DNA of 63,898 nt, counting the filler, from Blastocystis sp. subtype 4 (lineage: Eukaryota), in assembly GCF_000743755.1 (NCBI RefSeq). It is 3 parts of 3 records of this genome, joined end to end, with 100 filler letters (N's around TTAATTAATTAA, not from the genome) between each part and the next. Parts side by side here need not be neighbours in the genome. Positions count along the whole stretch, not along the records: positions 45,043 to 63,898 come from NW_014569332.1; 2 more parts are not named here. The stretch is one strand, 5' to 3'. Below the pieces are notes generated by a model. The model saw nothing but the letters and a program-made list of their open reading frames with translations, did no database searches and had not been told where the DNA came from. The translations under genes were made by a program, and so were the position numbers. Positions 53,378 through 55,475 of the stretch are shown piece after piece (position 1 is the first letter of the stretch; each line of letters opens with the position of its first letter).

Positions 53378-53436
53378 CCAAAAGTTCAGAAATGTAAGTC
53401 TCAAAGAGTTTCCCTACACCCCATCATAGAATTTGG
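53378..53436 (-). promoter_or_regulatory. Type II SECIS element in the thioredoxin reductase 3' UTR
   Basis: CCAAA ttct ATGAT GGGGTGTAGG GAAA CTC TTT GAG A CTTACATTTC TGAA ct TTTGG: helix I, AUGA/GA core, 10-bp helix II, AAA and apical mini-helix. Confidence 0.85.
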
Positions 53437-53608
53437 ATCTCCTCTAATCCAACCAGTAATGCAATACAGACGACAAGGTCGGTGATAGTTGTGTAGTATA
53501 GTAAGAAAGTGTTGTAGTGTCCTGAAGCCAAGAGACTGTGATGTTTCTAATGACTTTTATACTGTGACGTTGTTTCATAAGTTACAGCAATGTAATGTCA
53601 TATCACCC

Positions 53609-53756
53609 TAGTTAACTGTGTACAACATCACAAAACCTTTAGTTAACTGTGTGCAACATCACAGCATCTTTAGTTAACTGCGTACACCACACAACACCCT
53701 CAACTGCACACAATATCGCAACACCTTTAATCTACTGCACATATCGCAGAACCACC
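53609..53756. repeat. Degenerate ~30-nt tandem repeat, about 5 copies, in the TrxR 3' UTR
   Basis: AGTTAACTGTGT(A/G)CAACATCACA...CTTT units that diverge progressively. Confidence 0.8.
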
Positions 53757-53796
53757 ATAGATGGAAACCAACATTGTCGCGGTACCCGTATTGCAT

Positions 53797-55475
53797 TTAG
53801 TTAGCTCAGCAACTCCGTTTGGCAGCATTCCGGTCCTGCTCCTTAGTTACCGATAGACTGAAGACTTCCTCTCCATGCGTTGGATGAATTGGAACCACAT
53901 CATCCATATCTTCTTTGGTAACTCCCAACTTCATACTGAGAGCAATTCCCTGAATGATATCTCCCGAATTAGGACCCAATATATGAACTCCTAAGACTTT
54001 CCGAGGTGCCTCATGCATGCAAATCACTTTTGAATAGCATATATTCTCCTCTGGTTCGTTCTTCTTATTCATTCGGCCCAAATAATTCATCTCCAATGTA
54101 TTATATCTATGCATCAGGCTCCACCTCCTTGCTTACTTCATATGATACACATCCACAGACGCACTCTTCACAGCTTCTTCCTCTGTCATTCCTACACACG
54201 AATACTCCAAGGGAGTAAACACGGTCGTTGGAATCAGAGAATAATCCATCTGCTTACTACTACCGCCAAAGAGACGATCTGCTAGTAATTTACCTTGCTT
54301 TATGGCAACAGGAGTGAGTTCAGGGTTCCCATAACGAGCATCTCCAATCACATGGATGTTGGGAACACGTGTTGTTTCTCCTGCAGGACACACAATCTTG
54401 CCTGAATCTGGTTCGGCAAAAAGCTTCACCGCAGAGAGATTCAACTCATCAGTACAAGCACGCCGACCTGTTGCAAACATCACAGTATCAAAAACATCCT
54501 GTCTCTTGGTGACGTTATTCACCGTCCATTCAACGAGTAATTTCCCGTCCGCCTCCTTGCTAATCCTATCAGGTAACGACCGCTCAAGGAAGTGAACTCC
54601 ATGATTGGTCATATCCTCTTGAATCAACTGAGCCATTTGCTCATCAAATCGACGCAAGACACGAGAACGGACCATCACCGATGTGTCGTATCCAAAACTA
54701 TTTAAAAAGCCCGCACATTCCAGTGCAATATACGAAGCCCCAACAATAAGGGTCTTTCCAGGTTCCTTCTTCAAACGGAACAAATCGTCACTAGTGATAC
54801 CAAATTCACGAGCACCGGGGATATCCCTATAAATGAATTTGTCATAATTCCGATTACGGAATTAAAGGACGCCCTCCCGTTGCAATTACAATGTGATCGG
54901 CAGTAATATCCTTTCCTTCTACATGAACGGTATGATTATCCACAAAGGAACCCTTGGCATTCAGATATCTAGAATGAGAAACAAAGCAAATCCATACTCC
55001 ACATCTTCATCCATTAAACTACCCCGATACTTAAAGTTCAGGGAACGGATATAGTTTGAAATGTTTGTAACCATCGTATCCCAGTCCGGTCGACGATGGG
55101 ATTCCGCAAACCCAACTTGAAGAGCATCCTGCTCATTGTCACAATACTGGGCAGTTAAATGGAATAACTTCTTTGGAATACAACCAACATTGACACATGT
55201 TCCTCCCAAACCCCAGGTTGTTCCCTGGGAACTAGGACTAACATAGTCAAGAAGCGCAACATGGGCCCCTATCATTCATAATACCCATAATGGAGTACCA
55301 TTGGCACTTGCCTGCTGAGCACAGCTAATTCCTCCCGATCCTCCTCCAATAACAATCAAATTATAACTAGAATGAAGCAAATCCTTCACCAGTACTCGTA
55401 ATTCGCAGTTGTCGCTGCAAAGCCTCGAATGCCGAACAACCTTCGACCAATTCTAGAAGATGCAATTCTTAGCAT
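53797..55475 (-). CDS. TXNRD: High-Mr thioredoxin reductase, predicted selenoprotein (Sec UGA 53808-53806), with a mitochondrial-type presequence
   Basis: [54 protein letters not shown]; ends TGC TGA GCT AAC TAA; downstream SECIS. Confidence 0.92.

Follow-up and report, generated by a model that had tools for sequence, protein, structure and literature searches.

The mammalian large thioredoxin reductases (TrxR) TXNRD2 and TXNRD1 and the flatworm TGR (PDB 1zdl, 3dgz, 1h6v, 22ey) end in Gly-Cys-Sec-Gly, with the selenocysteine (Sec) as penultimate residue and a Gly on both sides of the Cys-Sec pair. The insect enzymes (Drosophila Ser-Cys-Cys-Ser; PDB 2nvk, 3dgh) carry Cys instead of Sec, do without a SECIS and end one residue past the dyad, and the Ser preceding their first Cys has been reported to raise the reactivity of the dyad (PMC11508645). 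Gold drugs such as auranofin have the Sec-type TrxR as their usual target, as shown for flatworm TGR (PMC13138743), and thus the real C-terminus of such an enzyme matters for this kind of work.

In the genus Blastocystis, two Sec-type large TrxRs were predicted from the subtype 7 genome, GSBLHT00004575001 and GSBLHT00003465001 (Denoeud et al., 2011, PMC3129679). As described in that paper, Sec is penultimate in both enzymes, the enzymes are cytosolic, and the SECIS elements were assumed and not shown. A Sec-type SPS2 of subtype 7 is listed in the supplement of a later study (Mariotti et al., 2015, PMC4561486). The main text of Gentekaki et al. (2017, PMC5608401) contains neither the word seleno- nor thioredoxin, Blastocystis is not named in three supplements of a tRNA-Sec survey (PMC5330540), and the portions covered of four further papers (PMC7435645, PMC7539508, PMC4114682, PMC3316567) held nothing bearing on the case. 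With a Sec-type TrxR predicted for the genus in 2011, the selenoprotein status of the subtype 4 enzyme is no surprise and our observation is only partly new. What is new here is a SECIS located in the mRNA, two likely residues after Sec, and a predicted rod of 355 nt between UGA and SECIS.

Gene structure and family of the subtype 4 enzyme

The window, that is, the whole stretch of 63,898 nt that was analysed, is compact eukaryotic DNA in which introns measure 29–31 nt and the Blastocystis poly(A) motif occurs 19 times in exact form. The TrxR gene occupies six exons on the minus strand (55475-53797), and its model has 510 codons, among which only codons 507 (TGA) and 510 (TAA) are stops. All five introns are spliced out in contigs of run X1. 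The features of the locus are as follows.

55396..55475, minus strand: exon 1, start codon and 26 Arg-rich residues; intron 1 is absent from the X1 contig
55299..55366, minus strand: exon 2, FAD-binding GxGxxG at residue 34 (gene model, X1 splicing)
54998..55268, minus strand: exon 3, N-terminal redox dithiol CVNVGC, residues 74-79 (55197-55180)
54858..54968, minus strand: exon 4 (gene model, X1 splicing)
54137..54826, minus strand: exon 5, NADPH-binding domain and start of the interface domain (Pfam PF07992, PF00070, PF02852)
53797..54106, minus strand: coding part of exon 6, interface domain, catalytic His481/Glu486 (53886-53869) and C-terminal arm
53797..53814, minus strand: tail of Ser505, Cys506, TGA (likely Sec507, 53808-53806), Ala508, Asn509 and TAA (DNA, contigs L001-L003, X1 contig)
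53766..53773, minus strand: Blastocystis poly(A) motif with one mismatch, 24 nt downstream of the TAA and base-paired in the predicted rod
53449..53804, minus strand: spacer, predicted to form one long rod with its base 2 nt after the UGA and closing 12 nt before SECIS helix I
53609..53727, no strand assigned: 31-nt unit in three to four degenerate copies in the 3' UTR
53378..53436, minus strand: SECIS-like element with helix I, ATGA/GA core, 10-bp helix II, apical AAA and a marginal mini-stem
53356..53368, minus strand: poly(A) site (53368), followed after four bases by a Blastocystis poly(A) motif with three mismatches (53363-53356)

A protein search matched the main exon at 100% identity with [quoted passage not shown], and NCBI protein KAK8804646.1 is the same as residues 1-506 of our model. 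In the region 55276-55475 of the window (minus strand), the RefSeq protein XP_014526395.1, of 459 aa, takes as its start an ATG that lies in intron 2; it lacks residues 1-49 together with the GxGxxG of exon 2, and the X1 contig splices both upstream introns. Both NCBI models stop at Cys506, as the first-pass annotation had anticipated in stating that automatic annotation would truncate the protein. For a eukaryote that is very common in the gut, the model given here thus corrects those of a central antioxidant enzyme, one of which also lacks its FAD-binding start. On the other side of the gene, the TrxR start and the first ATG of a spliced DFP-domain (CoA-synthesis) gene on the plus strand stand head to head about 56 nt apart (55475-55532), and a single X1 contig spanning both start regions is compatible with overlapping 5' UTRs, without proving them.

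The protein belongs to the large (high-Mr, animal-type) TrxRs of the TGR subfamily. It scores 551.6 bits against NCBIfam TIGR01438 (cut-off 475.85), the glutathione reductase models remain below their own cut-offs, and mouse TrxR2 and Drosophila TrxR are its top matches in the PDB. The motifs of the large type are all in place, namely GxGxxG at residue 34, CVNVGC at 74-79 and His481-x4-Glu486, followed by a C-terminal arm with its Cys at the conserved distance, residue 26 from His, and then the TGA. With the mammalian and flatworm enzymes, to which it is about 50% identical, it shares the domain order, the CVNVGC, the His/Glu pair, the arm length to Cys, the adjacent Cys-Sec and a SECIS in the 3' UTR, while it differs in Ser for Gly before the Cys, in two residues after Sec, in an insertion near residue 420, in Gln for a conserved Lys after GxGxxG and in the drift of its arm from the family pattern (KEQD for KRSG). 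The subtype 7 enzymes resemble it in genus, in being of the large type and in a C-terminal Cys-adjacent TGA that is read as Sec, and Monosiga is among the closest named relatives in both cases; compared by their published description, they differ from it in the place of Sec (which would be third from the end in subtype 4), in the SECIS, which is located in the subtype 4 mRNA, and in its N-terminal extension (PMC3129679). No named protein of subtype 1, 3 or 7 appeared among the matches of our protein searches and the search of 50% representatives (20 proteins named). The orthologue of Blastocystis sp. Blastoise (KAK8805859.1) is sister to the subtype 4 TrxR with SH-like support of 99 in a FastTree phylogeny of 120 rows chosen for a complete arm, a sample that is sound for the Blastocystis clade and not for deep placement.

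From what is known of the family, the enzyme is predicted to reduce thioredoxin as a homodimer, along the electron route set out for flatworm TGR (PMC13138743). NADPH would reduce FAD and FAD would reduce Cys74-Cys79; His481 and Glu486 would then help to pass electrons to Cys506-Sec507 on the flexible arm of the other subunit, where the selenolate of Sec507 would reduce thioredoxin. The 26 N-terminal residues include five Arg/Lys and no Asp/Glu, and this basic, acid-free composition makes exon 1 a likely presequence, by which the TrxR would probably be sent to the mitochondrion-related organelle. The machinery for Sec is presumably kept in subtype 4. None of the two tRNAs of the window is a tRNA-Sec; they are tRNA-Ile(AAT) at 57720-57795 on the minus strand, which sits at the 3' end of an opposite-strand RRM, Arg/Ser-rich ORF, and tRNA-Leu(CAG) at 63813-63894 on the plus strand.

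The C-terminal codons and their place in the family

According to the first-pass annotation, the ORF halts at KRSC and the DNA continues AGT TGC TGA GCT AAC TAA. These letters are confirmed on the minus strand, where AGT lies at 53814-53812, TGC at 53811-53809, TGA at 53808-53806 and, after GCT and AAC, TAA at 53799-53797. The X1 transcript contig has the same tail letters, and the metagenome contigs L001-L003 match the window exactly over tail and UTR; thus the tail is real DNA and not a sequencing slip. These three loci came from a metagenome scan of 80 candidate stretches, and none differs from the window in what it covers; as clonal copies they confirm the letters and are uninformative about conservation or covariation of UGA, tail, SECIS and rod.

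Cys506 is residue 26 counting from the catalytic His, and a Cys occupies the same place in 113 of 119 non-Blastocystis relatives. Seventy-two of these continue with Cys-x in the manner of insects and 41 end there, which is the pattern expected if gene callers halt at a Sec UGA; among the remaining relatives one is a residue longer and five have aberrant ends. The TGA of codon 507 aligns with the second Cys of the 72 Cys-Cys-x relatives and with the cut point of the 41 others. A 93%-identical relative is represented by four database proteins annotated to end at the same Cys (P0123-P0126; P0127 is a fragment), and the Blastoise orthologue (P0219), which is 47% identical, is annotated in the same way; for the diverged relatives it is protein ends, not codons, that were compared. 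Neither U nor X occurs at the protein ends of the 119 relatives checked or among the 357 tails tallied. Database proteins stop at the UGA, and residues past it are therefore invisible there.

The proposal made at first pass, that this UGA is Sec, gains support from its position, from a SECIS lying in the polyadenylated mRNA (see below) and from the published Sec-type genes of the genus. It is very probable, in our judgement, that the gene encodes a working Sec-type large TrxR in which UGA is likely read as Sec and which likely ends Ser-Cys-Sec-Ala-Asn. Given the Sec reading, the adjacent Cys-Sec dyad is present as TGC TGA, and the canonical rule of a penultimate Sec with Gly on both sides fails, with Ser before and Ala-Asn after. 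The tail as a whole had been called non-canonical. This stands for the two residues after UGA and is not upheld for the Ser before Cys, which is fairly common in protist-type relatives: as a novelty it was rejected, having been seen in 2 of 97 near relatives that end in Cys and in 6 of 60 diverse ones. A residue other than Gly precedes the terminal Cys in 18 of the same 60, and the insect tail likewise begins with Ser. The real departure of this tail is the two residues after Sec, with the adjacent Cys-Sec pair kept. We found no report of a TrxR with Sec third from the end in the literature on Blastocystis selenoproteins and TrxR tails, including a part of the tail-variant enzymology and of the supplements.

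The SECIS-like element and the 3' untranslated region

A well-formed type II SECIS had been placed about 370 nt downstream of the stop on the same strand. The element is where it was said to be, 369 nt after the TAA, with ATGA(T) at 53427-53423, helix II at 53422-53413/53398-53389, AAA at 53411-53409, TGAA at 53388-53385 and helix I at 53436-53432/53382-53378. The features of a eukaryotic SECIS, namely the AUGA/GA core, a helix II of about 10 bp, the apical AA (here AAA) and helix I, are all found, and the score lies below the Rfam gathering threshold. The mini-stem of the type II form is the marginal part, having a probability of about 0.3 and being 0.3 kcal/mol worse than an open loop of 14 nt, and thus the choice between type I and type II is unsettled.

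By score the SECIS is weak. The whole Rfam SECIS_1 model matches 53437-53377 with 24.1 bits against a gathering score of 35 (E 0.16 across 4227 families), and four of the ten pairs of helix II are G-U, the others being three G-C and three A-U, with pair probabilities of 0.83-1.0. The folding energy alone is unremarkable (z +0.9). The element exceeds what chance would give. Its match is the only one listed for SECIS_1 in the 63.9-kb window. A pattern of our own, composed after the element had been seen (core, 10-bp helix, apical AA, helix I), also finds this site alone on both strands of the window; it matches 0 of 5000 shuffled 429-nt UTRs in its strict form and 12 of 5000 in its relaxed form, and gives 0.05-0.4 matches in shuffled windows.

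Polyadenylation upstream of the hairpin, which would have removed the element from the message, was looked for in run X1, and the end lies past the hairpin. One spliced X1 contig spans 53368-55011 without a letter of difference from the window. At 53368, 10 nt beyond the hairpin, it continues into a tail of 24 nt that is not templated, and thus the SECIS is inside the mRNA; this is the strongest of the new evidence for the element. This transcript evidence is one contig from one run, and the RNA nature of X1 is a guess, although the contig is spliced and tailed. The spacing of poly(A) site and motif equals that reported for Blastocystis in the part covered of PMC4159000. Run X2 yielded only short unspliced TrxR pieces that fall short of the tail, and in runs X3 and X4 no TrxR piece that could be used turned up at either 85% or 80% likeness. 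The SECIS, only assumed in the 2011 genome paper, is hereby located in a Blastocystis mRNA and offers a handle for the remaining selenoproteins.

The TrxR 3' UTR is 429 nt long and ends with the SECIS, while that of the convergent neighbour has only 13 nt. This neighbour (52280-53352, plus strand) encodes a ZIP-family metal transporter with a His-rich loop; its poly(A) site lies at about position 53341 and the exact poly(A) motif that goes with it at 53345, the two mRNA ends are 27 nt apart, and run X4 contains a related ZIP transcript about 85-90% alike. An estimate of 3' UTR length from the 19 poly(A) motifs was given up as too noisy (median 119 nt, range 3-900).

Three nested inverted repeats in the UTR prompted folding of the spacer. 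The predicted fold is a rod from 53804 to 53449 of -120.4 kcal/mol (z -4.5, 0 of 100 shuffles as stable), in which most long-range helices have a probability of 0.85-0.99. None of 150 half-wise shuffles was as stable, and the opposite strand is weaker (z -2.3 vs -4.5 for the mRNA strand). Among the control tiles, 1 of 32 reached z -3.7, as against -3.5 for the 353-nt UTR part with the same script. Part of the pairing stems from the 31-nt tandem repeat, each of whose first three copies holds a GTTAAC palindrome. The idea of the UTR as a mobile element was rejected, with no second copy in the window. Rod and SECIS are predicted to be compatible at a cost of 0.7 kcal/mol.

Recoding would follow the standard eukaryotic route, with SBP2 on the SECIS core, eEFSec and tRNA-Sec. 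The spacer may fold back as the rod and hold the SECIS near the UGA; if real, the rod would bring the two to within about 15 nt and cover the poly(A) motif with one mismatch at 53773; an mRNA cut there would lack the SECIS. A known parallel is the selenocysteine redefinition element (SRE), likewise an RNA structure just 3' of a Sec UGA and thought to aid recoding; SREs are described as stem-loops adjacent to the UGA (PMC5133445), whereas the rod predicted here covers the whole distance of 355 nt to the SECIS. How a distant SECIS reaches its UGA thereby becomes a question that is testable in one construct.

Possible origins of the predicted longer tail and alternative readings

If Sec is inserted, the two residues behind it could be an old and selected trait, with Blastocystis TrxRs ending Cys-Sec-x-x and the groove for the C-terminus remodelled. 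We regard this as a genuine though doubtful possibility. Five residues after GxGxxG, near relatives nearly always keep the conserved Lys as Lys or Arg (190/193: all 101 with Cys-Cys-x and 89 of the 92 that end in Cys), and at this position subtype 4 has Gln and the Blastoise orthologue Ala. The Lys is the putative partner of the terminal carboxylate, a role not found in the literature searched; if it holds, the groove changed early in the genus, and the change could have allowed or followed a longer tail. An ending of Cys-Cys-Ala-Gly in one of 150 representatives (P0260) also speaks for such tails. On the other hand, Lys/Arg occupies the position in 39 of 46 diverse Cys-ending relatives, so that seven of these are without it as well, and the two Sec TrxRs of subtype 7, possible orthologues, are described with a penultimate Sec (PMC3129679). 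An off-frame stop codon moreover lies two bases 3' of the TGA, where the loss of one base from a Sec-Gly-stop ending would have left it; judged post hoc by codon usage, P is about 0.03. The extra residue may, most simply, have come from the loss of one base after TGA, by which an old Gly-stop ending was shifted to the next TAA, and we propose that it is tolerated. The two clues to its origin, off-frame stop and lost Lys, point in different directions.

It is conceivable, and to us rather unlikely, that all of these traits form an ending specific to Blastocystis, with two residues after Cys-Sec, a groove lacking the usual Lys, and a rod of 355 nt that brings the SECIS up to the UGA and masks an early poly(A) signal. 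Were this so, Sec would not need to be penultimate in a TrxR with adjacent Cys-Sec, and the locus would be a natural case of long-range RNA bridging from SECIS to UGA. For enzymology, the tail offers a natural test of whether the number of residues after Sec matters.

The motif at 53773, 24 nt beyond TAA, raises the question of a regulated switch between two mRNAs: the long form would contain the SECIS, and the short form, cleaved at this motif, would yield a Sec-less enzyme. The motif has one mismatch while that of the used site has three, and human selenoprotein S is known to have variants that lack the SECIS (PMC5133445). Such a switch is nevertheless distinctly unlikely: X1 contigs, which drop rare forms, show no transcript end near 53778, 0.55 motifs of this kind are expected per 429 nt, and the motif is paired in the predicted rod.

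Less probable still is a true stop at UGA, with a protein that ends at Cys506, its C-terminal redox pair lost and the hairpin a decaying relic. The low Rfam score and the many G-U pairs would suit a relic, as would the drifted arm, the loss of the conserved Lys and the departure of the tail from the family rule. Against this, all SECIS features occur together at a site unique in 64 kb, the mRNA keeps a 429-nt UTR and ends just past the hairpin, and the terminal Cys is retained in the 93%- and 47%-identical relatives. A protein ending at Cys506 would resemble rat TrxR1 truncated at this place, which is unable to reduce thioredoxin, as reported in the part covered of PMC2268967. An assembly error, with one base dropped from a real ending of Sec-Gly-stop, would explain the off-frame stop two bases after TGA and is next to impossible, the same letters being present in three metagenome contigs and a transcript contig, of which one may be the source of the window and not all.

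The reading of a working Sec-type TrxR with a tail of Ser-Cys-Sec-Ala-Asn is the one we prefer. Further odd ends occur among TrxR-like representatives, namely Gly-Cys-Ala-Thr in P0320 and Val-Cys-Glu-Ser in P0253. A 50% representative named "Thioredoxin reductase [uncultured virus]" (P0242) ends Thr-Cys at the Sec-adjacent position and is possibly a viral Sec-type TrxR.
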